A stretch of DNA of 31,348 nt, from positions 1-31,348 of IMG/VR virus record IMGVR_UViG_3300011439_000037. One strand, written 5' to 3'. Position 1 is the first letter of the stretch, and each line of letters opens with the position of its first letter. This document shows, in pieces, positions 636-29,409 of the stretch. Origin of the DNA: a virus (lineage: Duplodnaviria > Caudoviricetes). The translations under genes were made by a program, and so were the position numbers. The notes under the pieces were generated by a model. The model was given only the letters and a program-made list of their open reading frames with translations, had not been told where the DNA came from and searched no databases.

Positions 636-670
636 CCAACACTATAACACAATGCTTGCTATTTGTCAAC
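636..670 (-). promoter_or_regulatory. Class I sigma70-type promoter TTGACA-17-(TGt)TATAGT, leaderless to ATG 634
   Basis: Consensus -35, 17-nt spacer, extended -10; 28/35 nt identical to 24264..24298. Confidence 0.8.
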
Positions 671-1598: not shown

Positions 1599-1875
1599 GG
1601 AAGAAGGTGGAGATTTCCGAGAATTCCACTACATTGCTGAAAATTCCGACAAAAAAACTCGAGAACTGTATGAAACTGCGGTCAAATCGGGGCAACTCAT
1701 GTACTCTATCGGTGACAGAACGGTGAATATCAAGCCAGCCTACATCTCTTTGGTGGAAACTACTGAGGATTTTGACTTTGTGCTTGGTCGAACCCGCATG
1801 GAACCACCAGTACACACTCCAATTATCGAAGCCAGTGTCGAAATCACTGATAAGAAGGAGGAAAATGTCCAATAA
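1576..1875 (+). CDS. Hypothetical protein, 99 aa
   Basis: SD AAGGAGGG at 1561; overlaps both neighbours in operon fashion. Confidence 0.8.
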   Translation: MLHILYTEEEGGDFREFHYIAENSDKKTRELYETAVKSGQLMYSIGDRTVNIKPAYISLVETTEDFDFVLGRTRMEPPVHTPIIEASVEITDKKEENVQ

Positions 1876-2836
1876 ATTACCCACCATTGGGTTTATTGGC
1901 AATTTCGTTCCTCCATTTTCCACGGAAAACGACAGGAAGTGGAGTTTTGAGAAACTCGGTTACAAAGTCGTCCCTTTTCAGGAGTCTCGCACTACTGTTG
2001 AGGAATTACGCCGACACATGCGGGACGAATTCTACTCAGACCCCATCGGAGTTGAGTGTTTTGATGTTTTGTTCTACTCCCACACTCACGGCTGGGAAAT
2101 TCCTGGGCTTATTGAGTTTTTTGAGGAGTGTAAAGAGAAAAAAATCCCCACAGTCTCAGTTCATCTTGATAGATGGGCGTGGCTCGAGCGGGTGACTGAT
2201 GTTGGCAAGGAAGCAACCTGGTTTACCGAGCATTTGTTCATGGCTGACGGTTCTCCCGAGGCTGAACAGCTTTATGCCAGACATTCTTTGAACTGGCACT
2301 TCCTCAAACCTGGTGTTGTTGAGCGTGATTGCTACATGGCAGCTCCAGACCCCGCAATGTTTCCCCATGAAATTGTGTTTGTTGGCTCAAAAGGCTACCA
2401 CCCCGAGTATGCGTTTCGTCCAAAGCTCATTGAATTCCTAGCCGAAACCTACGGTGACAGATTTGGTCACTGGGGTAATGATGGATTGGGTGTAATTCGT
2501 GAAGGTGGTCTCAACACACTCATGGCTTCTGCAAAAATTGTTGTTGGTGACTCCTGTTTTGGTGGCAGACCTGATTATGTGTCCGACAGGTACTACGAAA
2601 CTCGTGGAAGAGGTGGCTTTTTACTCCATCCTCATCCCGAAGGTGGGAGAATTGACAATGTTGGGGTCGGTCACTACCAGCCACAAAATCTCGTTTCCCT
2701 AAAAGAAAAAATTGATTATTATTTGGAGCACTCTTTTGAGCGTGAAGAAATGCGGGAGATGGGTTTCAACTGGGTAAAAGACCACGAGACCTACACCAAT
2801 CGCACAAAAGAAATGATGGAGGTCATTTTCCCATGA
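1865..2836 (+). CDS. Glycosyltransferase, GT-B fold, CgeB/YkvP-like (Glyco_trans_1_2)
   Basis: Start moved to ATG 1865 (SD AAGGAGG); motifs IVFVGS, SDRYYETRGRGGFLL, IDYYLEH..ERE....G...V..HETYTNR. Confidence 0.85.
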   Translation: MSNKLPTIGFIGNFVPPFSTENDRKWSFEKLGYKVVPFQESRTTVEELRRHMRDEFYSDPIGVECFDVLFYSHTHGWEIPGLIEFFEECKEKKIPTVSVHLDRWAWLERVTDVGKEATWFTEHLFMADGSPEAEQLYARHSLNWHFLKPGVVERDCYMAAPDPAMFPHEIVFVGSKGYHPEYAFRPKLIEFLAETYGDRFGHWGNDGLGVIREGGLNTLMASAKIVVGDSCFGGRPDYVSDRYYETRGRGGFLLHPHPEGGRIDNVGVGHYQPQNLVSLKEKIDYYLEHSFEREEMREMGFNWVKDHETYTNRTKEMMEVIFP

Positions 2837-3510
2837 TTAGTATTCTGCTCCCCACCAGAGGAAGACCCGACATGGCTCGCAAATTTATTGAGTCCGTGCT
2901 TCACACCGCCGACAACCCTGACCAAGTAGAAATCGTGATGCGGGTTGATGATGACGACACCAGTTATGACGACTGGAGGCACATTCCCCAGGCTCACCTG
3001 TATCTGGGAAAGCGAGAGAACCTTTCATCCTGCTATTTGTGGGAGAGAGCTCGGGGCGACATCTTCTTTATGGGTGGCGATGACTTGATTTTCCACACAA
3101 AGGGTTGGGATACCAAGGTCGAAGCGGAGTTTGCCAAGTACCCTGACAAAATTCTTCTCGTTTATGGGGATGATGGCGACCCAAATACTGAAAAAACCAA
3201 CGCTTCCCATGGATTTATTCATCGTAATTGGTGCAACGCCCTTGGTCGTTACCTTCCACCCTATTTTAGTGGGGACTTTGTTGATACCTGGCTCACTTTC
3301 CTGGCTGATGGGGTTGGTCGAAAGGTGAAAATTGACATCGTTACCGAGCATTTACACCCAGCTTTCAACAAAAGAGAGCAGGACAGGACTGACAAAGAGC
3401 GATGGGAGAAGCATTTCAAGGATGACATGCCACAAAAGTTTCTCGACACTCTCCCAGAGCGTGAGGCGGATGTGGTAAAGCTCAAGAAATTCATGGAGGA
3501 CTTCAAATGA
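2833..3510 (+). CDS. Glycosyltransferase, GT-A/GT2-like
   Basis: N-terminal ISILLPTRGRP, EIVMRVDDDD, DxD-like FFMGGDDL, late EHLHP; ATGA-coupled. Confidence 0.85.
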   Translation: MISILLPTRGRPDMARKFIESVLHTADNPDQVEIVMRVDDDDTSYDDWRHIPQAHLYLGKRENLSSCYLWERARGDIFFMGGDDLIFHTKGWDTKVEAEFAKYPDKILLVYGDDGDPNTEKTNASHGFIHRNWCNALGRYLPPYFSGDFVDTWLTFLADGVGRKVKIDIVTEHLHPAFNKREQDRTDKERWEKHFKDDMPQKFLDTLPEREADVVKLKKFMEDFK

Positions 3511-4409
3511 AAATCATCGTAACAGGCGAACAAGGATTTATCGGCTCCCACATGGCAGCTTTTTTGGTGCAAAAGGGACATGATGTACGATTTATTACAC
3601 CCCAGGGCAAAGACCTTCGCAATTTTGAGGGTTTGACCGACCAACTGCGGGGTATCGACATGGTATTTCACTTTGCAGCCAACATGGGTGGGGTTGGGTT
3701 CTTCTCAGAGCACAACTACCAACCATTCATCGACAACGCCCAGATAGACATGAACATTTTTACCGCTTGCCAGGAGGCTGGGGTTGGAAGATTGTTCTAT
3801 GCTGCCTCGGCTTGCATCTACCCGATTGATATTCAGGCAAATGAAAACGCCATTCCCTCTCTCAAAGAGACTCAAATCATTCCAGCACATGCTGACCAAA
3901 TGTACGGCTGGGAAAAACTGATGATGATGCTTCTTGCCAAACACGCACCTATGGATGTTCGAGTTGGTATCCTCAATACCGTTTTTGGTGAGGGTCAAAC
4001 CTGGATTGGAGACCGAGTGAAGTTCCCACCAGCTATCACCTACAAGGTTTTACAGGCAAAAAAGTCTGGGGCTTCCATCCCTATTTGGGGTAATGGAAAT
4101 CAAACCAGAACTTTTCTCTATATTCAGGATGCGGTTGAAAAAATCTATGAAATTATGATGACTCCCGAGTATTTTGGGGAAGTGAATGTTGCCAGCGATG
4201 AAATTGTTACAATAAAGCAGTGTGCTGACTGGCTCTGTGAAATTGCGGGCATCACTCCTGATTATCAGTTTGACACCACCAAGCCGAGTGGAGTTTTGGC
4301 TCGAGGCATTGATAACACAAAATTCAATGAGCATTACAAATATCGAAGTCAATTCACAACCCGACAGGGGTTTGAAAACCTGTATCACTGGATGGAACAA
4401 CAAGTATGA
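3507..4409 (+). CDS. NAD-dependent nucleotide-sugar epimerase, GDP-mannose 3,5-epimerase-like
   Basis: TGEQGFIGSH (GxxGxxG), FAANMGGVGF, YAASACIYP, YGWEK (YxxxK), WGNGNQTRTFLYI. Confidence 0.88.
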   Translation: MKIIVTGEQGFIGSHMAAFLVQKGHDVRFITPQGKDLRNFEGLTDQLRGIDMVFHFAANMGGVGFFSEHNYQPFIDNAQIDMNIFTACQEAGVGRLFYAASACIYPIDIQANENAIPSLKETQIIPAHADQMYGWEKLMMMLLAKHAPMDVRVGILNTVFGEGQTWIGDRVKFPPAITYKVLQAKKSGASIPIWGNGNQTRTFLYIQDAVEKIYEIMMTPEYFGEVNVASDEIVTIKQCADWLCEIAGITPDYQFDTTKPSGVLARGIDNTKFNEHYKYRSQFTTRQGFENLYHWMEQQV

Positions 4410-5917
4410 AAATAAACTATCTCTCAACCAAAGAAGGAACACCAGCCTCGGGATACTGGGATATGGCGTTCATTGAAGACATTCTGCGTGACCTGCCCGA
4501 CTCAGAACGAGCGGTGTTCGTCATTCCTGCTGCCTACCAAGGTGATATGGTGCCCGCAATAAACGCTGAAATAAACAAACACGACCATGTGGTTGTTTTT
4601 ATCACTTCCGATGAGGAGCACAAGTTCCCAACCGAGCAACTTCGACACCCAAGTATGTATGTGTTCGAGCAGTACAAGGCGACTTTCCCTCTGGGCTACA
4701 CCCCACAAACCAGGAGCGAGCTCAGGAAAATTGGCTACCAAAAGAAAACTCTTCCTTATTTTTATTCAGGACAAATCAACCACATCCGAAGGCAACAACT
4801 CCAAGATGTGCTCGTGAAGTATGACCATGGTCGCCAATACTTTTTCCCCACCGATGGCTTTGCCAAGGGTATGAACCCCGAGGGATATTTCCAAATGATG
4901 TCTCGAGCAACGGCTGTTCCCTGTCCTCCAGGCAATGTGACTCAGGACTCATTCCGTGTGTATGAAGCACTTGAGGCTGGGGCGGTTCCTATTGTTGATA
5001 GGTTTTCAGCTCAGGGCGAAGGTGAGTATTGGGAGAAAATGTTCCCCGATGCACCGTTCCCAATTCTTTCGTCTTACCAGGAACTCCCAGAACTCATTGA
5101 AAAGTGCCAAGACCCCATGCTCCGCAACAAGGTGTTTGCCTGGTGGATTGGAAAAAAGATGAAGCTCCGCCAGCAAATGAAGGATATTTTGGGTATCAAA
5201 GAAGCTCTCACTATTGTGGTGCCGACCTCCTACATCCCTTCCCACCCAAACACCACAGTCATTGACCAGACTATTGCCTCAATCCGCTACCACACGGGCT
5301 CGGATATTATCCTGACCATTGATGGTTTGCGGGATGAGCACAAAGAAATGAGTAATGATTACACAGAATACATCCGAAGGCTCTTATGGAAGTGCAACTT
5401 TGAGTATGAGAACGTCCACCCAATCCTTTTTGAAAAACACACCCACCAAGCTGGAATGATGAAAAAGGCTTTGACCCAGGTGCATACCGACCTCGTGATG
5501 TATGTGGAACACGACACCCCACTTGTTACGGATGAACCAATCGACTGGGAGTACATCGTTAAAGTATTGATGCAGGGGGACGCTCACGCAATCCGCTTCC
5601 ACTTTGAGGCACGAATTCCCGAGGAGCACAAATATATGATGCTTCCTGAACACGATATGCCGTATCTCCAAGCCACAATTCAGTGGAGCCAGAGACCCCA
5701 CATCGTCAGAACCAACTTTTACCGTGGCATTATGCAGCTCTTCTCTGACAACGCTGACTGTTTCATTGAAGACTTTATCCATGGCAAATGTGCCGAGGGT
5801 GACTGGAACGATTGGAAGCTGTTTATTTATTCTCCTCCAGGCAACAATATAAAAAGAAGTCTCAACCTTGATGGTCGTGCGGGTGGGGCAAAATATGACG
5901 ACAAACAAATATGGTAA
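4406..5917 (+). CDS. Two-domain glycosyltransferase: exostosin/GT47-like N-domain plus GT-A C-domain
   Basis: FYSGQ...RR...PCPPGN..DSFRVYEALEAGAVPIV (exostosin-like); IVVPTS...IILTIDG...MYVEHD (GT-A-like). Confidence 0.78.
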   Translation: MKINYLSTKEGTPASGYWDMAFIEDILRDLPDSERAVFVIPAAYQGDMVPAINAEINKHDHVVVFITSDEEHKFPTEQLRHPSMYVFEQYKATFPLGYTPQTRSELRKIGYQKKTLPYFYSGQINHIRRQQLQDVLVKYDHGRQYFFPTDGFAKGMNPEGYFQMMSRATAVPCPPGNVTQDSFRVYEALEAGAVPIVDRFSAQGEGEYWEKMFPDAPFPILSSYQELPELIEKCQDPMLRNKVFAWWIGKKMKLRQQMKDILGIKEALTIVVPTSYIPSHPNTTVIDQTIASIRYHTGSDIILTIDGLRDEHKEMSNDYTEYIRRLLWKCNFEYENVHPILFEKHTHQAGMMKKALTQVHTDLVMYVEHDTPLVTDEPIDWEYIVKVLMQGDAHAIRFHFEARIPEEHKYMMLPEHDMPYLQATIQWSQRPHIVRTNFYRGIMQLFSDNADCFIEDFIHGKCAEGDWNDWKLFIYSPPGNNIKRSLNLDGRAGGAKYDDKQIW

Positions 5918-6969
5918 ACAAAATTGGACTCATCGCTTTTGCAAATGATGGTGGACTGGGAGCTCAAACTCGCAGACTTGCCAAGATGCTCAACCCCGAC
6001 ATCATTATGGTTATCGACTCTTCTGGGTTCTCCAAAAACAAGGTGCAGCATTTTGAGTGGTACCGAGAGTGGAACCACTTTATTGTGGGCGGTCTCCCAG
6101 GAAATCTTGCCATTCAAACCTTCCTTCAAAACCTGACCCATGTGTTTGTATGTGAAAATCCTTACAATTTTGGACTCGTGTACTGGGGACAACAGCAGGG
6201 GACGAAGGTTTTCGTGCAGAGTAACTACGAATTTTGCGACAACCTGGACAAACCATGGTTGCCAGTACCAGACAAATTTCTCATGCCTTCTCACTGGATG
6301 ATACCTGAGATGTTGGAAAAGTACGGCACCGACAAAGTGATGTATCTCCCACCACCCATCAACCCCAATGAATTCACCAAGGCTCGGGAGCAAAACATGA
6401 AACGCCGTGGTAAAAAGCGTTTCCTTCACCTTATTGGAACTGCTGCCACCGAGGATAGAAACGGTACCTTGGATTTGATTGATACCCTGAAACTCACCAC
6501 TGGTGATTTTGAAGTTGTCATCCGCTCCCAACAACCACTCTCCATGGACGTTTACTTGGACGACCCACGGGTTACTTATGAAGTGAACAACTGGGACGAA
6601 AACTGGGAACTCTACAATGACTTTGATGCTCTACTCTTGCCTCGCAGGTGGGGTGGATTGTGCCTCCCAATGCTTGAAGCCCTGATGTCGGGACTCCCCG
6701 TACTGATGACTGACATTTCTCCCAACAAGGAGGTTTTGCCACGACAGTGGGTAGCTCCAGCCAATCGCATGGGAACTTTTATGGCTCGCAGCGAAATCCC
6801 CTACTACTCAGTGGGTCATGGAATTTATGCTGAACTTATCGAAATGTTTGCGAAAATGAGTGATGAAGTGATGCTCGAACAGAAGATGAAAGCATTTGGT
6901 TTGGGAGTAGAGAGATTTTCAGACGCAGCACTCAAGCCCAAGTATTTAGAGCTTCTTAACAACGGGTAG
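5911..6969 (+). CDS. Glycosyltransferase, GT-B/GT4-like
   Basis: N-terminal DGGLG loop; DALLLPRRWGGLCLPMLEALMSGLPVLMTD. Confidence 0.88.
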   Translation: MVNKIGLIAFANDGGLGAQTRRLAKMLNPDIIMVIDSSGFSKNKVQHFEWYREWNHFIVGGLPGNLAIQTFLQNLTHVFVCENPYNFGLVYWGQQQGTKVFVQSNYEFCDNLDKPWLPVPDKFLMPSHWMIPEMLEKYGTDKVMYLPPPINPNEFTKAREQNMKRRGKKRFLHLIGTAATEDRNGTLDLIDTLKLTTGDFEVVIRSQQPLSMDVYLDDPRVTYEVNNWDENWELYNDFDALLLPRRWGGLCLPMLEALMSGLPVLMTDISPNKEVLPRQWVAPANRMGTFMARSEIPYYSVGHGIYAELIEMFAKMSDEVMLEQKMKAFGLGVERFSDAALKPKYLELLNNG

Positions 6970-7137
6970 CCCCGAGTGAGTTTCTTTCACAGTCCACCCA
7001 GTAGGTAGTTCAGGACAGTAGTCCTCTTTTTGTTCCCTGCGGAAAAAATAGGTCTTGGTTGCAATCTTATTTCGACCAATGATGGTGTTTCGGCAATGGA
7101 GAAACCACTTGGTTCCTTTGCTGTTGGTATACGTCAT
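6946..7137 (-). CDS. Small conserved-looking hypothetical protein, 63 aa (YTNSKG...YFF...LP.G..V.E..SGLPVVKK)
   Basis: Own leaderless promoter; resembles, from memory, a small uncharacterised family frequent in CPR bacteria; convergent 24-nt overlap with the GT4 gene. Confidence 0.8.
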   Translation of the reverse strand: MTYTNSKGTKWFLHCRNTIIGRNKIATKTYFFRREQKEDYCPELPTGWTVKETHSGLPVVKKL

Positions 7138-7182
7138 AAAATAATAGTAGCATATTTCTGCGGTCTTTGGTATTCTGATAGT
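7138..7182. promoter_or_regulatory. Class II overlapping divergent promoters, both leaderless, with TCTGCGGT box
   Basis: Plus: TAGCAT(7148)-17-(TGg)TATTCT-6-ATG 7183. Minus: (TGc)TACTAT-6-ATG 7137. Box at 7157..7164. Confidence 0.7.
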
Positions 7183-8760
7183 ATGAGCAATGTCTTACTA
7201 CCCGATGGTGAAATGAAAAAAGTCCAAGAGACATTGATGGAGATGGCAAAACAGGCATCCGAAGACCCAATTTATTTCATCGACACCTTCTGCTACACCT
7301 TCAACCCAAAACAGGAACCCTTTCATTTGCGGTTCAAACTTTTCAACTTTCAAAAGCGTTTAGTCCGAGACATCGTTGCAGCAATCCGCAATGGTGATGA
7401 TATTTTCATTGATAAAACTCGGGAAATGGGCGTGACCTACACCATTCTCGCAGTCTTTTTGTGGTTCTGGTTGTATGAGCCAGCTTCAAACTTCCTTATC
7501 GGCTCTCGAAAAGAAGATTATGTTGATAACCGTAGAGGCGGAACCACTGGAAATAAAGAAGAGTCGCTGTTTGGAAAACTAGACTACATGCTCTCCCGAC
7601 TCCCCAGCTTCCTACTCCCAGAGGGTTGGAACAGAGAGAGGCACTTTACCTACATGTCTTTGGTCAATCCTAAAAATGGTAACTCAGTATCGGGGGAAAG
7701 TAGTAATCCGAATTTCTCTCGAGGAGGAAGGCAACGAGCAATCTTTTTAGATGAGTTTGCTTTCTGGGATGAGGGCTCCGCCGTATGGGGAGCAACTGCC
7801 GACACCACCAACTGCCGTATCGTAGCCACCACCCCAGGAAACAAACCTTCAAAAGCAAAAAGACTTCGCTTCGGAAAAGACGGGGAAAAAATCAAAATCA
7901 TCACTCTTGACTACAAGCTCGACCCACGAAAAACTCGTGCATGGTTGGACGAACAACGCACCCGCCGTTCCACTGAGGACTTCAATCGAGAAATCATGGT
8001 CAACTGGGAAACCTCCATCACTGGTCGTGTGTATCCAGAAATTGAGAGTGCAGCCTATGGCGACTTCCCATTCCTGGTGAACCAGCAACCCTACACTTCC
8101 TGGGACTTTGGTTTGGACGGAACCTCCTTCGCTCTTTGGCAGCAGAACCCAGCGAACGGAAAGTGGCGTGTCATTGATGCCTATGAAAAAGTTGACCAGC
8201 CTATTCAGTTCTTCTTCCCCTTCTTTGGGAAACCCATGGACTCCAAATTCCAGTACACCGATGACGATTTGAAAGCTATGAAGACCTGGAGTCAGTATCC
8301 AAAACAAATTCATTTTGGAGACCCTGACGTTGCAAAACGAAACTACGCCTCGCCTGAAATCACCAGTGCTCGCCTGGAGCTCCAGAAAATTGGTATCTTT
8401 GTGCAGTCAGTTACCAGGAATGATTTCTTCTCTCGAAGGGAAATCACCAAGGTGTACCTGCAAAAAGGAATTGAAATTAACCAGGGCACCAGGACTGAGG
8501 ACTGGTTGGAAGCTATCAAACAGGCTCGCTACCCACAACGGGAAGAGAGCTCACAGGCAACCACCCCAATCACCAACCCAATTCACGACTGGACTTCCCA
8601 TTCACGAACCGCCATGGAGTATTTCTTTATTAACATTGACCTTTATGCCAATATAGAGGTGGAGAAGCCTTCATGGGCTGACAAAGCGTCTGACCTTTCA
8701 AGAGGGGGGTCGGCACGTTCACTAACAAGTAGAAGTGCTCTTGCACACCGAAGGAGGTGA
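7183..8760 (+). CDS. terL: Terminase large subunit
   Basis: Walker A-like DKTREMGVT, Walker B AIFLDEFAF, coupling motif ATTPG, nuclease SWDFG; start moved to ATG 7183. Confidence 0.93.
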   Translation: MSNVLLPDGEMKKVQETLMEMAKQASEDPIYFIDTFCYTFNPKQEPFHLRFKLFNFQKRLVRDIVAAIRNGDDIFIDKTREMGVTYTILAVFLWFWLYEPASNFLIGSRKEDYVDNRRGGTTGNKEESLFGKLDYMLSRLPSFLLPEGWNRERHFTYMSLVNPKNGNSVSGESSNPNFSRGGRQRAIFLDEFAFWDEGSAVWGATADTTNCRIVATTPGNKPSKAKRLRFGKDGEKIKIITLDYKLDPRKTRAWLDEQRTRRSTEDFNREIMVNWETSITGRVYPEIESAAYGDFPFLVNQQPYTSWDFGLDGTSFALWQQNPANGKWRVIDAYEKVDQPIQFFFPFFGKPMDSKFQYTDDDLKAMKTWSQYPKQIHFGDPDVAKRNYASPEITSARLELQKIGIFVQSVTRNDFFSRREITKVYLQKGIEINQGTRTEDWLEAIKQARYPQREESSQATTPITNPIHDWTSHSRTAMEYFFINIDLYANIEVEKPSWADKASDLSRGGSARSLTSRSALAHRRR

Positions 8761-8999: not shown

Positions 9000-9677
9000 A
9001 TGATAGACGTATCTGTCCTTATAACCTGTTTCAACAAGGAGAAGTACCTTGATGAATGTGTTTCTTCCGTGCTCCGACAATCAAAAGAGCCACGGGAGAT
9101 TATTGTGGTTCACGATGAATGTGAAAATCCTATGCACCATGCAGAGGTTACCACCATCATGCTCCGCAAAAACCTTGGTGTGGCTCGTGCTCGCCAGGAG
9201 GCGTTCCGTTATTCAATAGGGAAACTCATTCTCTTCCTAGATGGTGACGACATTTTGTCGCCTGATTACTTGGAGAAAATGACCCAGCGAATTGCGGATG
9301 GTGCAGATATTGTCTACCCAGATATTTACTTCTTTGGTGACAGTGGAAAAAAACTATCCGTGCTGACTGAAAAGGTTGAGCCAGCACTGGTAGAGAAACT
9401 GGAACGACTCCCCATACCTGTGACCTGCTTGATGAAACGAGAGGTCTACGAAAAGGTAGGGGGGTTTGGAAAGTGGGAGGTACTCGAAGACCTCGACTTT
9501 TGGCTTCGAGCGATGTGTAATGATTACACCTTCGGAAAGGCGGAAACCCTGCTCTGGTACCGCCAGGAAGGAGTCAAAAGAAACGCAATGGACTTGGGGA
9601 AAAAGACCAAAATCATGCGTGAGATTATGGAGCAATTTGTGATAGAGAACAACACTATCAAACAAAAACATGCCTAA
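9000..9677 (+). CDS. Glycosyltransferase family 2
   Basis: VSVLITCFNKEKYLDECVSSV, GVARAR, FLDGDD, EDLDFWLR. Confidence 0.93.
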   Translation: MIDVSVLITCFNKEKYLDECVSSVLRQSKEPREIIVVHDECENPMHHAEVTTIMLRKNLGVARARQEAFRYSIGKLILFLDGDDILSPDYLEKMTQRIADGADIVYPDIYFFGDSGKKLSVLTEKVEPALVEKLERLPIPVTCLMKREVYEKVGGFGKWEVLEDLDFWLRAMCNDYTFGKAETLLWYRQEGVKRNAMDLGKKTKIMREIMEQFVIENNTIKQKHA

Positions 9678-10023
9678 AACGTACATAAAAACATTGCGAC
9701 AACTTATGATGGTAGCCTCCTCCCAGAATTTTTCGGAAATGGAGATGCCAGATGGGGAGCCATTTGACGCTGGGGATAATGGGGAAGCTGCTGATATGAT
9801 GGTGTCACAAGTGCAAGCCGATGCTCATTTACTGTCCCTCCTTCGCAACATGGCGGATAGGGAAAAAATCATTCTCATGTATCAAATTTTGAGGGAGTCT
9901 GGGTACAATTTGAACCATGCGGAGTGTGCAAAAACCTTGAACATAACCCGTGAACGCTACATGGTGATTTTGAAAGGTGTGAAGAAAAGAGCTGCAAAGA
10001 TATTACAAATTCCCTTGGAATAA
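9670..10023 (+). CDS. Stand-alone sigma70 region-4-like HTH protein (putative transcription regulator)
   Basis: LRNMADREKIILMY...LNHAECAKTLNITRERYMVI matches the sigma region 4 pattern; at 117 aa there is no room for region 2. Confidence 0.75.
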   Translation: MPKTYIKTLRQLMMVASSQNFSEMEMPDGEPFDAGDNGEAADMMVSQVQADAHLLSLLRNMADREKIILMYQILRESGYNLNHAECAKTLNITRERYMVILKGVKKRAAKILQIPLE

Positions 10024-10037
10024 AGGATAATAGAGAT
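10003..10037 (+). promoter_or_regulatory. Class III promoter TTACAA-17-GATAAT-6-ATG (portal)
   Basis: Same geometry as 21415 and 29375; the -35 lies in the 3' end of the sigma-4-like gene; no properly spaced SD before the ATG. Confidence 0.7.
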
Positions 10038-12038
10038 ATGGAGAGCCAAGACAAACGCTACGCTGAAATCATCCGTAACCGCCTAAACAAAGCCCGAGAG
10101 CTTACTCAGGAGGTTTTTGATAGGGTGGAGTTGAACCGCAACCTGTACAAAGGCATCCTCCTAGTCGATGATACCTATGAATGGGATTACTCTTTGGTTG
10201 ACCAACAGGTCTTCCCACTCATCCGAAATTATATTGCTCGCTCCAACCCTTCGATGCTCAAGCTCCGCTTGGAAGCTCGCACCTCACAGGACTTTGAACG
10301 CAGACAGGTAAACCAAGACTTCGTGAACTGGGAAATTGGTGAGCTGCCAATGACCAACCTTTTGACTCGTGCTTTTTACTCCAACTACCTCGCTGGTAAA
10401 GCCTACTTCAAATCAGGGTGGAAATATGACCCAAGAGTCATCGTTACTCGAGGACAATACTCCTACGAGATGCGACCACTCATCAATCGTGCAGACCTCA
10501 AATTCGTTCGTTTTAACAATATCATCATCCCGAACCGCAACATTCCAGACCTACAGGAACAACCCTACGTCTTTGAATTGATGCAGCTCTCGCCTGGTGA
10601 AATGATTAAAGATAACGAGTCCTACGGGTACGAATACTGGGACAAAGCCTTCATTGAAAAACTGAGAAAATCTGGTGTTACTTCCAAGGCTCTCGACTAC
10701 GAAGCAGAGTTTGTGACTGAAATGGACACCATCGTCAAAGAGAAAAATTCTCCAGAAGAAATGATGTTTAGAGCAGCCACTTTCCCAGTGGTCTGTATGC
10801 ACACCAAGGAAAATGAAGTGATGTACATTCCTTTGGTTGACGGCATGGATACTGTTATCAACAAAAACCGAGAGAATGAATTCTGGCATGGCAAATACCC
10901 ATACATGGATATGACCGCTTTCCCAGAAGATGATGAATTTTACCCAATGTCAGTAGTCGATGCTGTCGGTGACACTCAAATCGCTTCCACTGAGGTGTTG
11001 AACCAAACCCTGACCAACATCCGCTCTATCAACAACAATATGTGGATTACTGGTGCTCCTGCTGCAACAACCCCTGACTACATGTTCAAGCAACGCCCAT
11101 CGGGAATTATCCGTGTTGCTGGCGACCCAGGACAAGTTGTCCCAGTTAGACCTCAAGACGGTACCCGCTCAATGCTTGAAGTTGGTCGTGAACTGCAAAC
11201 CAAATTTGAAAGAACTGGTGGAATTTCTTCACTCTATAGCTCTGGTGCTCCTTCCAAGACTGTCAATCAGACAGCTCGTGGTGCTCAAATCATTGACTCA
11301 AATATCGAAACCAATGTTCAAATGATTATGGACTTGTTCGGTGAGCAAATCCTCAAGCCTCTCGGTGACCACTTCATCGCTCTAAACGCCCAATATGTTA
11401 CCGAAGAGCAGTCATTCTCTGTTACTGGTAAAAAGGGTGTCCGAGAACTCTTGGCAATCGAGCCAGGTTTGGTCTCTGCAAACTTCGACATTTACACCTA
11501 CCCAGAGGCAATGATAAAACAGACCCCAGCTTCACGCCAGGCAAGTCTCCAAAACTTCTTGACGGTTTTGAACACCCAGGTCGTTCCAACTGGTGCTCAG
11601 GTTGATGTTGTCCCAGTCGTTGAGGCTTTAGTTGACTCCTACCCAGAAATGGAAAATATCGAAGACATCGTGGTCTCCATTGATGAAAAGGGCAAACGAG
11701 ACATCCTTTCAATGGAGCGTGGTCAGTTCCCAGAGGTCAAGGTTCGGGACGCTCACATGGAGCTTATCCAGCTTGTGACCCTTCACTTTGAAGACAACCA
11801 GGCAAACTACGCCCCAGAAGTGGCTCAAATGTTCACCATGTATGTTGAAAAACACATGAGGTTCCTGCAATCAGCTCAAGAAATTCAACAATTAACAGCT
11901 CCTCCGCCTCCACAGGTGCCAGGCGGGGATGGATTAGCAGCAGCTTTTGGGGCAACTCCTGATGGCGGAGGTGGAGATATTCCCCAAAATGAAGGAACAG
12001 GGGAAGAGGGTGGCTACAATCTTGGTGCCATTGTCTAA
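10038..12038 (+). CDS. Portal protein (P22/SU10-like)
   Basis: 666 aa, downstream of terL; FYPMSVVD and QTARGAQII resemble P22-type portal motifs; Q/P/G-rich tail. Confidence 0.88.
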   Translation: MESQDKRYAEIIRNRLNKARELTQEVFDRVELNRNLYKGILLVDDTYEWDYSLVDQQVFPLIRNYIARSNPSMLKLRLEARTSQDFERRQVNQDFVNWEIGELPMTNLLTRAFYSNYLAGKAYFKSGWKYDPRVIVTRGQYSYEMRPLINRADLKFVRFNNIIIPNRNIPDLQEQPYVFELMQLSPGEMIKDNESYGYEYWDKAFIEKLRKSGVTSKALDYEAEFVTEMDTIVKEKNSPEEMMFRAATFPVVCMHTKENEVMYIPLVDGMDTVINKNRENEFWHGKYPYMDMTAFPEDDEFYPMSVVDAVGDTQIASTEVLNQTLTNIRSINNNMWITGAPAATTPDYMFKQRPSGIIRVAGDPGQVVPVRPQDGTRSMLEVGRELQTKFERTGGISSLYSSGAPSKTVNQTARGAQIIDSNIETNVQMIMDLFGEQILKPLGDHFIALNAQYVTEEQSFSVTGKKGVRELLAIEPGLVSANFDIYTYPEAMIKQTPASRQASLQNFLTVLNTQVVPTGAQVDVVPVVEALVDSYPEMENIEDIVVSIDEKGKRDILSMERGQFPEVKVRDAHMELIQLVTLHFEDNQANYAPEVAQMFTMYVEKHMRFLQSAQEIQQLTAPPPPQVPGGDGLAAAFGATPDGGGGDIPQNEGTGEEGGYNLGAIV

Positions 12039-15907: not shown

Positions 15908-15942
15908 TTGCATTTCAGTACCGCAGAGATTATGATTATTTC
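15908..15942 (+). promoter_or_regulatory. Class II promoter TTGCAT-17-TATGAT-6-ATG with ACCGCAGA box
   Basis: Box at 15920..15927 is the reverse complement of the boxes at 1419 and 7157. Confidence 0.75.
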
Positions 15943-16554: not shown

Positions 16555-16684
16555 TATCCCAATCCCTAAATTTATGGTGGATTTTTGGTGGTTCCTCAAT
16601 GACCGTTGTTCAGAATGTGGGGGTGAAGTTGAAGAGCACATAAATGGAAAATACTATTGTAAAAACTGCAATGCAAAAAACTAA
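16544..16684 (+). CDS. Small zinc-ribbon protein, 46 aa (CSEC...CKNC)
   Basis: SD AAAGGAGA at 16531; overlaps both neighbours. Confidence 0.75.
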   Translation: MEFSIPIPKFMVDFWWFLNDRCSECGGEVEEHINGKYYCKNCNAKN

Positions 16685-17852
16685 ATATAGATTTCATTTA
16701 CTGGGACTCGTTCATGTACCGCAAGCACGGAGATATTCTGGCTGTGCGTTTACCCAGAAGAACTTGAAGCTGGCTAAAATGCTTGTAAACCTGGGGCATG
16801 AGGTGTTTTTCTACGGCTCTGAGGGTTCTGATGTTGTCGAGTATTGCAACAACTCCCCACTCCTTCATTTCATTCAAACACACACCCTAGCTGACATCCG
16901 AAAAGACTACGGCGAGGGAGACAACCGCTTTGAGCTGGGATATGACCACAACGCTCAAATGTTCAAGCATGACTTCAATGCTCCACCAAATCCATCAACC
17001 AGGAAGTTTTTCACCTCGGTCATTGAACACATCGTCAAAGTAAAAAAGGACGATGATTTTCTTCTCATTACTCAGGGAACGTACCAAAAGCCAATCGCTG
17101 ATGCTGTGGGTTTGTATCTCACTATCGAGCCTGGAGTTGGGTACCGAGGAGCGTTTGCCAACTTCAAAGCCTTCGAGTCTTCCTACATTCAGAATTTCTA
17201 TTATGGGAGCAAAAATCCACTGGAGTCACTCAACGGCAACTATTATGACCGAGTAATTCCCAATTACTTTGACCCTGCCGACTTTGAGGTTGCCGAGAAA
17301 AAAGGTGACTATTATCTCTACATTGGCAGAATGATTATCCGAAAAGGGGTTTGGACAGCCGTCAAAGCTACTGAGGCTATCGGAGCCAAACTCATTCTTG
17401 CTGGACAACTCGACCCAGAAATTGACATCACAACGCTTCCAAAACACTGCACATACGTTGGCTCAGTGGGCGTAGAAGAGCGGAAGAAGCTCATGGCGGG
17501 TGCTATAGCCACTTTCGTACCATCGGTCTATTTAGAGCCATTTGCGGGGGTTCACATAGAGTCTATGCTTTCAGGTACTCCACCCATCACAACAAACTTC
17601 GGTGTGTTCCCAGAAACCATCCCTGACTACTTGAATGGTCGGGTGGGTTTCCGTTGTAACACCCTGGCTGATTTTGTGGGAGCTGCCAGGCTTGCCAAAA
17701 AGATGGATGTCGATGTTCGCTTTGTGCGTGAGTACGCCGAGAGGTTTACCATAGACAGGGTGGCTTTGGACTACGAGAGATGGTTTGACGACCTTCATAT
17801 ACAATGGGAGAGTGCGGTTGACCCAAACAAACTTGGCTGGCATCGGCTATAA
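16671..17852 (+). CDS. Glycosyltransferase family 4 (GT-B)
   Basis: YLYIGRMIIRKG, PSVYLEPFAGVHIESMLSGTP (EX7E); start at 16671 preferred, 16644 possible. Confidence 0.9.
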   Translation: MQKTKYRFHLLGLVHVPQARRYSGCAFTQKNLKLAKMLVNLGHEVFFYGSEGSDVVEYCNNSPLLHFIQTHTLADIRKDYGEGDNRFELGYDHNAQMFKHDFNAPPNPSTRKFFTSVIEHIVKVKKDDDFLLITQGTYQKPIADAVGLYLTIEPGVGYRGAFANFKAFESSYIQNFYYGSKNPLESLNGNYYDRVIPNYFDPADFEVAEKKGDYYLYIGRMIIRKGVWTAVKATEAIGAKLILAGQLDPEIDITTLPKHCTYVGSVGVEERKKLMAGAIATFVPSVYLEPFAGVHIESMLSGTPPITTNFGVFPETIPDYLNGRVGFRCNTLADFVGAARLAKKMDVDVRFVREYAERFTIDRVALDYERWFDDLHIQWESAVDPNKLGWHRL

Positions 17853-18659: not shown

Positions 18660-18688
18660 TTACATTTAATAAAATACTTGTGTATTAT
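18660..18688 (+). promoter_or_regulatory. Class III promoter TTACAT-17-TATTAT (scaffold/capsid operon)
   Basis: 17-nt spacer, TGTG before the -10; same hexamers as 24762. Confidence 0.75.
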
Positions 18689-18695
18689 TAAACTA

Positions 18696-18773
18696 AGCAT
18701 AAAGCCTCTTTTGGCTCAACCTTTCGGGGGGCGACCCTCGTTATATAAATCGTTAGAGGAGAGCGTTTTTGCT
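18696..18773 (+). other. Structured 5' leader of the scaffold mRNA
   Basis: 18696-18715 pairs with 18752-18773; encloses CC-TTTC-GG and GGG-GCGA-CCC (GNRA) hairpins. Confidence 0.6.
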
Positions 18774-18800
18774 AACACAAAAATATGAAGGGAGGTGAAT

Positions 18801-19879: not shown

Positions 19880-21034
19880 ATGAAACAAGCAAATTACGGA
19901 CAAGGTTCAACATTTGAGGCTAACGATAAACAGCTTTATCTCAATATCGAAAAAGAGATAATGAAGTATCCTAGCCCTCGTATTGAGCTGTTAAAAAGAA
20001 TTGGCTCTTTCGACCAGGCTATCAATTCTCACAAGATTGAATGGTCTCGCCGAGACAACAGACCTGTAAAGGCTCTCGTTGTAGAAGGTGCTGCTTCTGG
20101 TGGAACAGTGATTACTGTTGATACCGCAGGGGTCTTCAATGTGGACGACATTTTGGAGAAACCAAACGGTCAGCAAATGGTCGTTGAGGCTGTGAACGGT
20201 GGAGTACAAGTTACTTTCCGAGCACTGGCTGGTGCTGCTGAGGCTCTATCTGGCGGTCAAACTGTCAGACGCATCGGTATGGCTACCGCTCAAGGTAAAG
20301 TTGCCGACAATATGGTGCGAACTGGGTACGAAGATTTGTACAACTACACTTCCATTTTGGAAGACGTGGTTGACTTATCTGGAACTGAGCACAACGCCCT
20401 CATTAGAGGACACGAGAACTCAGGTCAACTGATTGCTCGAAAACAGCAAGAATTGGCGGAAATCTGGCAGTCACAGATGGTGCTCGGCAAGAGAACCAAA
20501 AATGACGCTTTGAAGACTACCACTAATGCTGGTATCAAGCAGCTCATCGAACTGTATGCTCCTAACAACATTATCGACTTCGGAGGCACGGGAACGTGGT
20601 CTCTAACAGGCGACAGTGGTGTTCTCGGGAAAGTTGATAACGCACTCGATGTGTTATCTGCTAAGGTCATGGACAAACCTGTGATGTACGTTGGTGCCAA
20701 ATTCATGCGTAAATTCAAACACGTCATGGCTGACACTATCCGAACAGACCAGGAAAATGACACCAGAGGTATTGGAGTCGTAGGTACATACCTGTCACAT
20801 CTCTATGGAAAAATCAAAGTAGTCCTCTTGCAAGAGAGAACTGGCTGGATGGACAACATGGTGCTTTTCGTTGATGAGTCCGATGTCGGACAAAAAGCAA
20901 TGAAGGGTCGTGAATGGCAAACCTACCCACTCGCAAGATTGGGAGACTCTTACAGATGGCAAGTTCTGTCTGAAAGAACGGTCAAAGTGGGCAATCCAGA
21001 AGCTCACGCAATGCTTATCAACCTCGGTTTATAA
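19880..21034 (+). CDS. Major capsid protein (SU10/DUF5309-like)
   Basis: 384 aa; SHKIEW..D, YNYTSILEDVVDLSGT, YLSHLYGKIKV, E.TVKV.NPEAHA; strong SD; followed by a terminator. Confidence 0.88.
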   Translation: MKQANYGQGSTFEANDKQLYLNIEKEIMKYPSPRIELLKRIGSFDQAINSHKIEWSRRDNRPVKALVVEGAASGGTVITVDTAGVFNVDDILEKPNGQQMVVEAVNGGVQVTFRALAGAAEALSGGQTVRRIGMATAQGKVADNMVRTGYEDLYNYTSILEDVVDLSGTEHNALIRGHENSGQLIARKQQELAEIWQSQMVLGKRTKNDALKTTTNAGIKQLIELYAPNNIIDFGGTGTWSLTGDSGVLGKVDNALDVLSAKVMDKPVMYVGAKFMRKFKHVMADTIRTDQENDTRGIGVVGTYLSHLYGKIKVVLLQERTGWMDNMVLFVDESDVGQKAMKGREWQTYPLARLGDSYRWQVLSERTVKVGNPEAHAMLINLGL

Positions 21035-21414: not shown

Positions 21415-21449
21415 TTACAAAGTTTATCTTTGCAGGGTATTATTAGAGT
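21415..21449 (+). promoter_or_regulatory. Class III promoter TTACAA-17-TATTAT-6-ATG
   Basis: TATTATTAGAGTATG is repeated exactly at 25906..25920. Confidence 0.78.
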
Positions 21450-24264: not shown

Positions 24265-24298
24265 TTGACAAATAACTAGCGTTGTGGTAATATGTTGG
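24264..24298 (+). promoter_or_regulatory. Class I promoter TTGACA-17-(TGg)TAATAT
   Basis: Consensus -35, extended -10; homologous to 636..670. Confidence 0.8.
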
Positions 24299-24761: not shown

Positions 24762-24790
24762 TTACATTTTGAAAAGTGGTGTAGTATTAT
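24762..24790 (+). promoter_or_regulatory. Class III promoter TTACAT-17-TATTAT
   Basis: Same hexamers and upstream ACATTACATT context as 18660. Confidence 0.72.
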
Positions 24791-24815: not shown

Positions 24816-25868
24816 ATGAATTTCGACACAATTCTCAGACTCATCGGCGGTGAAAACCTTGACAAGATTGGTACTACGTTTGGACTAAAAGAACGTGGCT
24901 GGTCTGAACGGGCAAATAACAACCAACCAACCACCAATACTGGTGTTACTCCTCAGTCCAAAGCTGCTGGTCTCGATGACTGGCGTAGAGTTCACTTCGA
25001 CCAATCAACTGGCAATCCAAACTATCGTCCTCCTGCAAATGACCAAACAACTACTCCTCCTGGTGGAGGTGGTGCTTTTAGTGCTCCTGGTGGCGGTGGT
25101 GCAGGAGACCAAGGTGGTGGCGGTGGACAAGTCGATGAACTCGCACTTGCCGAAGCTGCTCGCCGAAATCGCATCAATTCCTACAAAGCTCAGGCTGGCA
25201 ACATCCGCTCACAAGCTCAGGGTGCTTTTGACAACATCCTAAAAGCTGTTGCTGCTTTCCGAGACCGCTCAAAAACTCAATACGACACTGCTGGTCAAGA
25301 AATTACCAACAATGCTTCTGAAATTCTTGGCTCCAATGCTCGTACCGCTACCGAAGCTGCTGGTTCAGCTCGCTCAAGGGGTCGTGCCATGGGATTGGGT
25401 GACAGTTCAAAATTCGCTCTCCAAAACAAAGTTCAAGGAAATCTCGCCTCTACTCAGGGTTCAACCATCGCTCGAAGGGGTGAGGAAGAGTCCTCAAATC
25501 GAAACCTCTTCCAAGAGAGAAACGACCAAGCACAGGGTCAAGAAGATGAGGCAAACACCTATCTCAAGAACGCAAATGACCGTGCAACTACTGTTGAAAA
25601 TACTGGGTATGATGCAGGTGAGGAAGTCTTCACCAGTGCCCTCAATGACATCGTGAACTACCAACGCCAGCTCGCAGCCGTCAAGCCTGTTCAGGCAGAA
25701 GGCTTACAGCAATACGCCCCGAACTTCGGTGGCATTGCGAACACTATCAATGGTGTGCTTGATGGTCTTGGTGGCGGTAGAGGTGTTACGGAAGAGCAAA
25801 TGGGTAACCCAGTCAATCCTACCAACGTGTTTGATATTCTCAAACGCCGAGGCTTAGTTCAGGGCTAA
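24816..25868 (+). CDS. Putative internal virion/ejection protein
   Basis: A/G/N/Q-rich helical composition; position after the nozzle gene. Confidence 0.65.
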   Translation: MNFDTILRLIGGENLDKIGTTFGLKERGWSERANNNQPTTNTGVTPQSKAAGLDDWRRVHFDQSTGNPNYRPPANDQTTTPPGGGGAFSAPGGGGAGDQGGGGGQVDELALAEAARRNRINSYKAQAGNIRSQAQGAFDNILKAVAAFRDRSKTQYDTAGQEITNNASEILGSNARTATEAAGSARSRGRAMGLGDSSKFALQNKVQGNLASTQGSTIARRGEEESSNRNLFQERNDQAQGQEDEANTYLKNANDRATTVENTGYDAGEEVFTSALNDIVNYQRQLAAVKPVQAEGLQQYAPNFGGIANTINGVLDGLGGGRGVTEEQMGNPVNPTNVFDILKRRGLVQG

Positions 25869-25902
25869 TCTCCTTCATAACGATACTTTCTCTCCTCTCT
25901 GA

Positions 25903-25917
25903 TGATATTATTAGAGT
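25903..25917 (+). promoter_or_regulatory. Extended -10 promoter (TGa)TATTAT-6-ATG
   Basis: Identical 15-mer to 21438..21452; -35 degenerate (ATACTT). Confidence 0.65.
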
Positions 25918-28900
25918 ATGGCACTAGCATTACTCCAAAAAGTCGCAGAAAAAGCAATTCAAGGTGTTGGAATGGCAGCAGGTTCCGCTTGGAATTATCT
26001 GTCAAAAAACGCTCCACAAGCTATTGACAAAGCACTCGAATTAAACCCTCAAACACGGGTTTTTTCTCAACGTGGACAGGGTGAAGTTGCTGACCTTGGT
26101 CGTTTCCTTCAAAAGATGCCTGATACTACTATCAAGGCACCCGAGTCCCGTGCCCCACAGTTCATCAAAAACACTCCCGCAGCTCTCTTATTTGATAATC
26201 CAGCTACTAAATTGCAGGACAAAGCCACTGAGTTTGTTTCTGGTATTCCAGGTGAATTTGTTCGTTCATGGGGTCGCACCACTGAGCGTGTGGCAACTCC
26301 CGAAGGACGACAGAAGATCGCCCAAGGAGCACAAGCTCTCCCAGGACAAGTAAAGAAAATTGCTACTCCAGGGCAACGCATGGAAGGACTTGGGGAATTG
26401 GTTGAAAATCCTGCTGTAGAAGATGCTCTCAATGCCACTGATTTGTTCACTCTTGGTGCTGGTACCGCTCTCAAAGCTGTTGGCAAGGAGGGTGTGGAAC
26501 AAGGTGTCAAACAGGTGGTCAAAAAAGGTGTCAAAACCGCTACTAAAGAAGTCATCGAGCAGGGTGTGGAAAGTTCGGGGAAAACTGCTGCAAAAACACT
26601 CTTCAAAGAGATAGCTGAGAAGCCTGGTGCCGTGCTCAAAGCGGTCACTGACCCAAAGGCTCAAAAAGCAGCTCTCAATGTTGTGGAAAACTCCGCTCCA
26701 TCCATTGTTGATGACGCTGTAAAACAGACAAAAACACTCTTCCGAAAACCAGTGGAAATTGCTCAGAAGTGGGTCAATACTCGTGAGGGTTTCACTAACT
26801 GGCGAGCTGCTGACATCAAGAAAACCCCAGGATTGACCGCTTTTGACAAAGAGGGCATGGAAGCCATCATTGAGCTACAGGCTGGGAAAAACCCTGAAAA
26901 ATTCAAAGCCATCAAGGACTTCACTGACGGGCTGTTTGAGCTCGAAAAGAAGGCTGGGCTACTGGAACCTGAACAATACCGCAAAAACTATATTACTCAG
27001 CTTTGGGATAACAGTCCCGAGGAAATTGATGAGGTGTTCAAAGCGGTTGTTGGCAAGAAGCCAGGGTTTACCAAGGCTCGCTTGCTCGAGGACTACAAAA
27101 CTGGTATCGAAGCAGGGCTCAAGCCCCGATATAACACAATGTCTGACTTACTGGAGTCTCGTTTCAAAACCTCTCAAAGAGCACTGGCTGACAAGGAACT
27201 TATTGATGATTTGATAACCTCTGGGAACGGAAAAACACTCGATAAAGCACCTCCTGGCTGGGAGGCTGTTGACCTTACCTGGGAAAATAAACCCATCGCT
27301 GTTCCTCCTGAAATTGCAAAGATTGTAAAGAATTACACAGCTACGGGCTCAAAGATGCTTGAAAATACAGCACAGTTTGTGTCAGAAGCCAAGCAAACCA
27401 TCCTTTCGGCTGGTATTCCTCGCTCTGGGTGGAATTTCCACACTGGGGTCAACGTCCCCACCCGTGCAATGGCAGCTCGTAAAAACCCACTGGGAGCAGT
27501 GGTTGACTCTCTTATCTGGAACACCAACCCAAAGAGTGCCGAAACATATATAACCAAAACTGTTCCGAAAGAAATTACCGATGGACTACTCAAAGCAGGA
27601 CTCACCATTTCCCGAAGTGCTGATGATGCTGGATACGGGTTCAAACCAAAGCCAGGAAAAGGGAAAATCTCCGCAGCTAGAAACACCTGGGACAAGCTCT
27701 TCTCAGAGGTCGCCTTCGACAAAGTGCTTCCTGCTCACAAGTTGAAAGTGGCATGGGAAACATACGAAAATGCTCTCAAAAAGGGACTCTCCTCAGACGA
27801 GGCGTTCCGCATTGCTGCTGAGACCTCAAACACTGTTTTTGGAGGGGTAAATCCAAAGGCTTTGGGTAGAGAACCAGACTTTCAAAATGCACTCAGAACC
27901 TTCCTTTTAGCACCAGATTGGCTGGAGTCAAACATCAAAATTGCAGGGAAAATGGGTGGTCTTTTGCACCCAAAGAACTGGGCTGACCCAGCGTATGCTC
28001 CCTACAAGAGATTTGCTGTAAATGCTGCTGGAATGTACTCTTCATTTGCGATGCTCAACAAAGCTATGTCGGGTAAGTTCCCATGGGAAAATGGTGAGGG
28101 TCAAGAATTCAACCTTGCGACTGGTACTTTTGATGAAAGAGGTCGGGAACGAATGGTGCCTGTGTTTGGTACCGCTTTTGACTTTGCTCGTATCCCACTA
28201 CAACTGGTGAGAGCCATCGGAGATGGTGACCCAGAACAAATTGGTCGGGTACTCAGAAACCGCCTTTCACCACCTGCGAGTGCTTTTACCTCTCTTTTCA
28301 TTACTGGGGAGGACTACAGAGGTCGTCCAATCGACACTCCTGGTGAGATTGCAGGACAGGTCGCACAAGCCGTTGGTGTGCCCTCCCAGATAACAAATGT
28401 CATCGGTGGGCTTACTGGCGAACAAACTCCAGAAGAGGTACTTGCTGGGGTACTTGAGGCACCTGTCAGGTACCGTGGTGGAGCCAATACTGCTGAGAAA
28501 CGACAAACTGCTGACCTGATGAAATCGGGTGGTTCAACAAATGAAGACATCAACAAAGCCTTCCAGTCAGACTACCAAGATGAGGGTGGTGGGTTCTTTG
28601 ACAAGCTCCTGGGTGGCTCTTCCTCTGGAAAAGGTATCACTGTACCAAAAACTCCCAAGGAGAAGAAATCCTTTGAAAAAGCTGTGGATACGGCACTGGA
28701 AAATGGAGCGGTTGACCTCTCGGAAGATGTAATCATTACACGGTTTTTCGATGGAAAAACCTATGATAAAAGTGCCCGCTCTGGACAACAGGACATCCTC
28801 GATGCTGCTCTCAAAGTGGCTGATGATGAGTACCTCACGCCTGAACAAAAGACAAAAATCGTCAACTCTGCAAAGATTGATGAGGTTGACCTGCAATACT

Positions 28901-29374: not shown

Positions 29375-29409
29375 TTACAATCTCTTTGAAGAACGGGTAG
29401 AATAAAAGT
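29375..29409 (+). promoter_or_regulatory. Class III promoter TTACAA-17-TAGAAT-6-ATG
   Basis: Fills almost the whole 36-nt intergenic gap; no SD. Confidence 0.78.

Follow-up and report, generated by a model that had tools for sequence, protein, structure and literature searches.

Can a lone sigma region 4-like protein of phage origin reset the promoter choice of its host's RNA polymerase? The question is raised by S4, a protein of 117 aa encoded at 9670..10023 on the plus strand of a 31-kb uncultured virus record (Duplodnaviria; Caudoviricetes). We refer to the whole stretch that was analysed, positions 1 to 31,348 of IMGVR_UViG_3300011439_000037, as the window. The initial annotation had pointed to a TRERYMVI helix in this ORF, which is indeed present, and to five promoters with an unusual -35 box, and had suggested that S4 replaces or supplements domain 4 of the host sigma factor. 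Here, S4 is considered as a candidate late-promoter specificity factor.

A sigma region 4-like protein in a packaging and virion module

According to Pfam and PHROG annotation, the window holds the packaging and virion module of a podophage-like phage, comprising glycosyltransferases, a large terminase, portal, capsid and adaptor genes of SU10 type and a collagen-like fibre; complete relatives measure 44-50 kb, some of them with direct terminal repeats. The S4 gene follows the large terminase gene terL (7183..8760, plus strand; Terminase_6N, phrog_5989) and is placed between a family-2 glycosyltransferase gene, GT2 (9000..9677, plus strand; PF00535, E 2e-25), whose stop codon overlaps the S4 start, and the portal gene (10038..12038, plus strand; Pfam SU10_portal, E 4e-26). 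The module also includes a putative scaffold gene preceding the major capsid gene (19880-21034; SU10_MCP, E 6e-23), an adaptor gene with a weak SU10_adaptor match (E 0.002), a 350-aa ORF that, by position only, likely encodes an internal virion protein, and a 338-aa tail-associated ORF with weak tail-fibre PHROG matches. S4 lies directly upstream of portal in 63 of the 65 loci holding both GT2 and portal, a set with many redundant members that includes same-phage duplicates and the window's own record twice. At one locus (L058), about 560 bp lie between S4 and portal. Four DNA runs over 9600-10200, with partial cover only, showed no variants.

A gene between terL and portal might also encode a small terminase or another packaging protein, an objection that the initial annotation had raised against itself. 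Three relatives (G002, G004 and G005) possess a small terminase gene separate from S4, of the GP3_package family (PF16677), which is present in 7 of the 11 genomes compared; terS was not found in the window, itself a partial record. The identification of S4 as terS is largely refuted by the separate gene in these relatives, and with a fold that matches sigma region 4 we regard any such packaging role as highly improbable.

Six glycosyltransferase-like genes and a nucleotide-sugar epimerase (1772-6969, 9000-9677 and 16644-17852) are interleaved with the packaging and virion genes, which makes virion glycosylation possible. A 63-aa ORF with no Pfam match (6946-7137, minus strand) is divergent from terL and occupies the same place in L001 and L007. 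The host of the lineage may be a CPR bacterium, which is our impression only; no S4 relative was found in GTDB genomes in a search aimed at the host, and a DUF5659 search for a host clue gave no match. A portal match, the L105 contig, in an archaeal genome bin probably stems from a co-binned phage. S4 had no match in 50,697 phage records, and deposited phages are distant matches only.

What kind of protein is S4? Residues 55-98 align without gaps to residues 545-588 of E. coli sigma70, such that T93 R94 E95 R96 Y97 M98 V99 correspond to T583 R584 E585 R586 I587 R588 Q589, the pairing of V99 with Q589 being an extension beyond the aligned 55-98. Comparison by hhalign of a 129-row S4 profile with an eight-sequence sigma70-family profile gave a probability of 79.6 (E 1.5e-5) over S4 50-97 only. 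With a structure model of pLDDT 84, a wide structure search (VIA) listed nothing but sigma factors or sigma-bearing complexes in its top 24 rows; the best match had a Z of 9.7 and an rmsd of 2.4 over 73 aligned residues, a Z that is modest alone for helical proteins, so that the argument lies in the uniformity of the sigma list. Foldseek also ranked sigma factors top, none of them at E 0.001 or better, and searching among solved structures by sequence produced no useful match. Pfam Sigma70_r4 matched S4 at E 0.006 (16.4 bits, under the 24.1 cut-off) and at E up to 0.05 in 16 of 129 family members, the best reaching 0.0002; PHROG held no family for S4 at E 0.001. Structure model, VIA list and hhalign thus agree with the assignment made initially: S4, as modelled, has a sigma region 4 fold.

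The family consists of stand-alone proteins of about 95-150 aa. It has 82 matches among 1.84 billion representatives, including two long ones over a short stretch only and one 57-aa piece, and 188 matches upon finer clustering; a weak test among 8000 scored candidates gave no longer form of S4. The chain is without sigma region 2 and hence is not a full sigma70-family factor. It ends near the equivalent of sigma70 607 and does not include most of the last helix, by which sigma70 binds the flap tip (PMC2988021).

Within the recognition helix T93-V99 (9946..9966, plus strand; alignment of 129 rows), the exposed positions 93, 95, 96 and 99 are hypervariable, with entropies of 2.7-3.5 bits, and R94, Y97 and M98 are conserved (1.6, 0.4 and 1.9 bits); R64, which equals sigma70 R554, is conserved as well. 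Close variants of the protein, P0006, P0014 and P0050 (about 82% identical), have the helix SRKTYML. In the structural account excerpted from PMC2613000, R584 contacts -31 and E585 contacts -33; R588 makes no direct base contact there, and changes of R588 relax -33 specificity genetically. The initial annotation had held that the -35-contacting equivalents of R588 and Q589 are changed in S4. In the alignment they are (M98, V99), but the residues described as base-contacting in that source, R584 and E585, are both retained in the window phage.

The acidic stretch seen in the N-terminal half corresponds to E23-D42. A conserved N-terminal motif (9709..9777, plus strand), of the family form FIPxSxNFSE[LM], acidic linker and FDxGD, retains F21 in 110 of 128 sequences, S22 in 104 of 128 and D36 in 112 of 122, and is a candidate anchor to RNA polymerase or sigma. 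By eye it falls on sigma70 region 3.2 in gapless register; hhalign did not extend there and gave the likeness no support, and we therefore keep it as a lead only.

Late and host-type promoters

The five late-class promoters are all found on the plus strand, at the places initially annotated and each with a 17-bp spacer, and they head virion genes, the 350-aa ORF being counted as such by position only. TTACAA-17-GATAAT (10003..10031) ends 6 nt before the portal ATG and overlaps the 3' end of the S4 gene, its first hexamer forming codons L112-Q113. TTACAT-17-TATTAT (18660..18688) lies 112 nt before the putative scaffold gene, which the major capsid gene follows; TTACAA-17-TATTAT (21415..21443) is 6 nt before the adaptor ATG, TTACAT-17-TATTAT (24762..24790) 25 nt before the 350-aa ORF and TTACAA-17-TAGAAT (29375..29403) 6 nt before the 338-aa ORF. 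The strict pattern TTACAW-N16-18-TANNAT has 4 matches in the window versus 0.16 expected, a number reached in 0 of 100 shuffles; with G allowed at -12 for the 10003 site, there are 5 matches versus 0.17 expected, and the maximum in 300 shuffles was 3.

Promoters of a different kind are present in the same window. TAGCAT-17-(TG)TATTCT (7148..7176, plus strand) ends 6 nt before terL and is predicted to drive terL-o76-GT2-S4, and TTGCAT-17-TATGAT (15908..15936, plus strand) precedes a 203-aa ORF. Canonical host-type promoters are TTGACA-17-(TG)TAATAT (24265..24293, plus strand), before a CAP-domain gene, and TTGACA-17-(TG)TATAGT (641..669, minus strand), with 11/12 consensus matches; in a generic sigma70 scan of the window, consensus promoters were not in excess (17 vs 20.6). 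Since TTACAW boxes and canonical or near-canonical promoters occur side by side, the phage uses two kinds of promoter. A TTG/TAG-type -35 and/or a TG-extended -10 precedes terL in 24 of 27 loci, a count that refers to a loose pattern without a chance control. The host-type promoter ahead of terL leads to the prediction that the host polymerase, still unmodified, transcribes the S4 gene.

In nine S4-bearing genomes or large fragments, the two classes differ in more than their -35 box. The -10 is TG-extended at 23 of 46 host-type (TTG..) sites versus 3 of 50 late sites (Fisher P 1.5e-6). None of the 46 host-type sites heads a core virion gene, and 38 of the 50 late sites head virion genes, the latter count being partly circular. 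The base counts of the -10 hexamers are alike in both classes. Among 38 late promoters, the signal is restricted to about -36..-29 and the -10 region, and no consistent second, tandem or upstream site was seen. Because the same genomes keep TTG-type promoters, TTACAW is not simply the normal -35 of the host, a possibility that had been foreseen as damaging to the proposal.

The start of a 1151-aa ORF (window 25868-25918) has a TG-extended TATTAT 6 nt before the ATG, with neither a TTACAW nor a TTG -35, and may thus be read without S4.

Covariation of the late -35 box and the recognition helix

The initial annotation had named covariation in related phages as a test, and its outcome is positive: the late -35 box and the S4 recognition helix vary together across phages. 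Upstream of portal, nnACAR at 17 bp occurs in 33 of 42 loci, where it falls in different S4 reading frames or outside S4; four loci carry another hexamer (TCTCAA, ATTCAA, CTACCT or ACGACT), and five (L030, L031, L038, L058 and L099) have no clear motif. Each genome repeats its own version at the portal, scaffold, adaptor and tail-associated genes. The window phage, with the helix TRERYM, uses TTACAW (five TTACAN sites at spacer 17 near starts). SRRQYM goes with NCACAW in G004 (eight sites near starts), QRQSYM and NRQGYM both go with A[TG]ACAW in G003 (five sites) and G006 (eight sites), VKESYM with YTACCT in G005 (five sites), HRSWYF with RCGAYY in G007 (four sites at 17 bp and two at 18 bp), and HRVHYM with TTACAN in G008 (five sites); G002 and G001 have three sites each at spacer 17, those of G001 being degenerate. 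Other spacers and non-overlapping foreign motifs gave mostly 0-2 sites per genome, in counts for which the motifs were drawn from the same genomes.

Two tests that are less circular point the same way. When sites were chosen blindly by their -10 score, within-genome identity of the -35 was 3.07/6 vs 2.70 after shuffling (P 0.002 for 14 units, 0.007 for 10). The -10 itself was also alike within genomes, more weakly (P about 0.02), and base composition thus contributes to the signal of this test. With sites chosen by their ACA core (94 pairs and 20 units, related units included), within-phage agreement was 0.73 vs 0.37 at -34 and 0.66 vs 0.41 at -35 (P 0.0002), with no such signal at -30.

Individual residues follow individual bases. 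Where residue 95 is R, the base at -34 is C (16 of 16 sites, a single clade); E95 pairs with T at -34 in 8 of 9 sites, and both K94 lineages depart from ACA. Neighbours on the portal tree, with one site each, give independent contrasts: L054 (SRSQ) lies within the SRRQ clade yet has CTACAA instead of TCACAA, and L028 (SRKW) lies beside the QRQS/NRQG pair yet has GCACAA instead of ATACAA. L105 (SRCQ) is an exception, for its one site is ACACAA and keeps C at -34. The portal tree is a quick version, and common descent underlies the sharing of helix types and of motifs; the series holds about three independent contrasts only.

Could the late -35 be read by something other than S4? Conceivably, another phage factor recognises it, or host sigma alone uses the late sites as weak 18-bp promoters, and S4 acts elsewhere, for example as a repressor of host promoters. 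The late sites of the window are indeed also readable as ATTACA-18, a 4/6 match to TTGACA, and shared ancestry may explain part of the covariation. Host sigma alone, however, leaves unexplained why whole genomes agree on bases that depart from the consensus and vary among related phages, and why the TTG promoters of those same genomes are unchanged. The nested changes at L054 and L028, moreover, track the helix, and no other conserved DNA-binding candidate was seen.

The relatives without S4 bear on this alternative from both sides. The two loci of 65 that have no S4 before portal represent one phage, G009, an 18-kb fragment in which portal, scaffold and adaptor are preceded by TTGACA and by TG-extended -10 elements; this would be expected if the private box owes its use to S4. 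In G010 (43.9 kb, with an estimated completeness of 54%), an HMM search detected S4 neither ahead of portal nor anywhere else, yet TTACC[CT]-19-(-10) precedes five of its gene starts, including those of portal, scaffold, adaptor and a tail gene; L085, in which no S4 was detected, has the same TTACCY-19 element. L086 / L122 (G010) and L085 form a sister lineage with TTACC[CT] at 19 bp. A private upstream element can therefore exist without a detectable S4, and G010 and L085 are the main result against the idea that S4 swaps for sigma domain 4. The reader in G010 is either encoded in the missing part of its genome or is another protein; a search for further relatives of G009 and G010 found none. 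Taking both sides together, we consider another reader unlikely, and S4 itself is in our judgement quite probably the reader of the late -35 box.

Possible modes of action at the polymerase

How might S4 direct the polymerase to late genes? S4 has a sigma-4 fold, and its presumed target is a single hexamer at the exact -35 position, strictly spaced from an unextended host-type -10; for these reasons it would be placed most simply where domain 4 of host sigma sits. We envision a scenario whereby S4, made from the host-type terL promoter, docks on the beta-flap in place of host sigma domain 4, its conserved acidic segment at the N-terminus perhaps reaching into the RNA exit path in the manner of sigma 3.2 and helping to push host sigma 3.2-4 aside. 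S4 would then read the phage-private -35 box, and recognition and opening of the ordinary -10 would be left to the host primary sigma, so that the portal, capsid, adaptor and tail-associated operons are transcribed. The near-invariant C of the late box, at -32, lies one base further upstream than the -31 position of sigma70. Were the S4 domain placed about one base upstream of the site of sigma70 domain 4, R94 would face and read this C, and residue 95 would face and read the variable, phage-specific base, matching the arrangement of R584 and E585 in sigma70. That S4 substitutes for host sigma domain 4 on the polymerase with the host primary sigma still reading the -10 seems to us an evenly balanced proposition; the fuller version, in which a region 3.2-like anchor and region 4 on one protein evict the host half and create a hybrid sigma in trans, we advance somewhat more tentatively.

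A predicted complex of S4 with the B. subtilis beta-flap (770-930, as a stand-in for the host) scored 0.40 against 0.01 for the best control, with runs agreeing in at least 86% of contacts and partner pLDDT of at least 70. The mark applied here was reached by 116 of 157 solved pairs and 2 of 215 mismatched pairs, and at 0.60 or under by only 18 of the 157 solved pairs plus both mismatches. As complexes of sigma-4 with the flap are among solved structures, the pass of S4 may be one of likeness. The suggestion that S4 replaces or supplements host sigma domain 4 and so redirects the polymerase is favoured in part, by the covariation and the two promoter classes, but flap replacement itself is, on such modelling, plausible only.

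Alternatively, host sigma domain 4 might stay on the flap, repositioned, and S4 might bind DNA beside or under it as an add-on activator, by way of sigma adaptation, appropriation or an Ltr-type mechanism. All of the covariation evidence fits this arrangement equally, the N-terminal motif, conserved as it is, might serve to contact sigma, S4 is short of most of sigma70's last helix, and the LtrA family of late activators has limited Sigma70_r4 similarity (PMC3753634). Then again, the late promoters offer one hexamer exactly at -35..-30, a strict 17-bp spacer and, in 38 promoters, no consistent further or tandem site, unlike the direct repeats that Ltr proteins need according to that paper. The predicted docking on the flap, weak as it is, also speaks for replacement. 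On balance we hold an add-on role to be rather improbable.

LtrA (Sigma70_r4), along with RinA, ArpU, LtrB and LtrC, belongs to the phage-specific activators of morphogenesis genes (PMC3753634). S4 resembles them in being phage-encoded, in its limited Sigma70_r4 similarity and in the location of its gene near packaging genes. The Ltr proteins for which tests are described in that source attach to direct repeats ahead of a single terS promoter, whereas S4 is partnered by one hexamer, free of repeats, at five to eight separate promoters, and its gene follows terL, between GT2 and portal, rather than lying directly upstream of terS.

The likeness to T4 sigma appropriation that the initial annotation had drawn holds for promoter architecture: T4 middle promoters combine a host sigma70 -10 with a phage element replacing the -35 (PMC2988021), as the late promoters here do. 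It does not extend to the proteins. The MotA box has its centre at -30, at a distance of 12 bp from the -10, whereas the S4-associated hexamer is at the normal -35 place; MotA differs in fold from sigma-4 and depends on AsiA for the remodelling of region 4, whereas here one sigma-4-fold protein would suffice; and AsiA and MotA serve middle promoters, whereas the S4 system concerns late genes. No AsiA-like co-activator was identified, no Pfam match to an AsiA-like or MotA-like protein was obtained among the proteins scanned, and a co-factor that removes host sigma-4 was likewise not found.

A sigma-4 domain on its own polypeptide is familiar from split sigma factors such as SigO-RsoA of B. subtilis, Tn916 Sig7-Sig8, T4 gp55/gp33 and SPO1 gp33/gp34 (PMC8103513; bioRxiv 10.64898/2026.10.01.756105). 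S4 might accordingly be one half of such a factor, with an unrecognised small phage protein as its sigma-2 half, in analogy to SigO-RsoA or Sig7-Sig8. Phages and mobile elements are known to encode split sigmas, the sigma-2 half of which can go unannotated (bioRxiv 10.64898/2026.10.01.756105), and a 76-aa ORF is found within the same predicted operon as S4. All of these systems bring their own sigma-2 half, whereas none was found with S4, and the -10 is host-type, its hexamers having much the same base counts in the late and host-type classes. No Pfam sigma-2 family matched any of the 145 small proteins scanned, which came from the window and from G002, G004, G005 and G010, and no second protein family is present in all nine S4-bearing genomes yet missing from the two S4-less ones. 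A split sigma thus strikes us as distinctly unlikely.

PafBC binds near -26 under sigma-4, which remains on the flap. Sigma adaptation by this mycobacterial factor, in which an added factor reprogrammes the housekeeping holoenzyme to new promoters (PMC8635444), resembles the proposed S4 mechanism in redirecting that holoenzyme, although PafBC is a heterodimeric WYL regulator. A precedent for the role proposed for the S4 N-terminus is phiEco32 gp79, a small protein that displaces sigma-4 by inserting its N-terminus into the RNA channel (PMC12276001). Unlike S4, gp79 works on behalf of gp36, a full sigma factor encoded by the phage itself, and the abstract of that paper does not describe it as a -35 reader.

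Known phage routes to redirecting RNA polymerase comprise a full or split sigma of their own, two-protein remodelling of host sigma as in T4, and operator-binding activators. A lone sigma-4 pairing with host sigma-2 would, if true, add a further and very compact route; the open-licence PMC and bioRxiv literature yielded no description of the S4 family or of such a swap. Whatever the mechanism, the family provides a natural series in which recognition helices vary together with -35 boxes located at the canonical position. A corollary is that an amino-acid/base code of -35 recognition becomes directly testable, and the series could supply orthogonal promoter sets. Were the swap true, dozens of helix/-35 pairs would amount to a readable code (for example, C at -34 for Arg95 and T for Glu95) and to orthogonal switches.

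Two features of transcript 5' ends deserve mention. Three late sites of the window stop 6 nt short of an ATG, so that their transcripts are predicted to be leaderless, and many promoters of both classes, in the window and G001-G008, end 5-9 nt before an ATG, pointing to widespread leaderless mRNAs in the lineage; strong Shine-Dalgarno sites occur at other genes, alongside the promoters close to an ATG. The leader of the scaffold/capsid operon (window 18690-18800) contains a hairpin that, together with its flanks, is conserved in 17 aligned loci, S4-less phages included. Rfam gave no match in the window; six pairs are predicted for the hairpin, three of them with changes on both sides, and it is a candidate translational operator or packaging-related RNA element.
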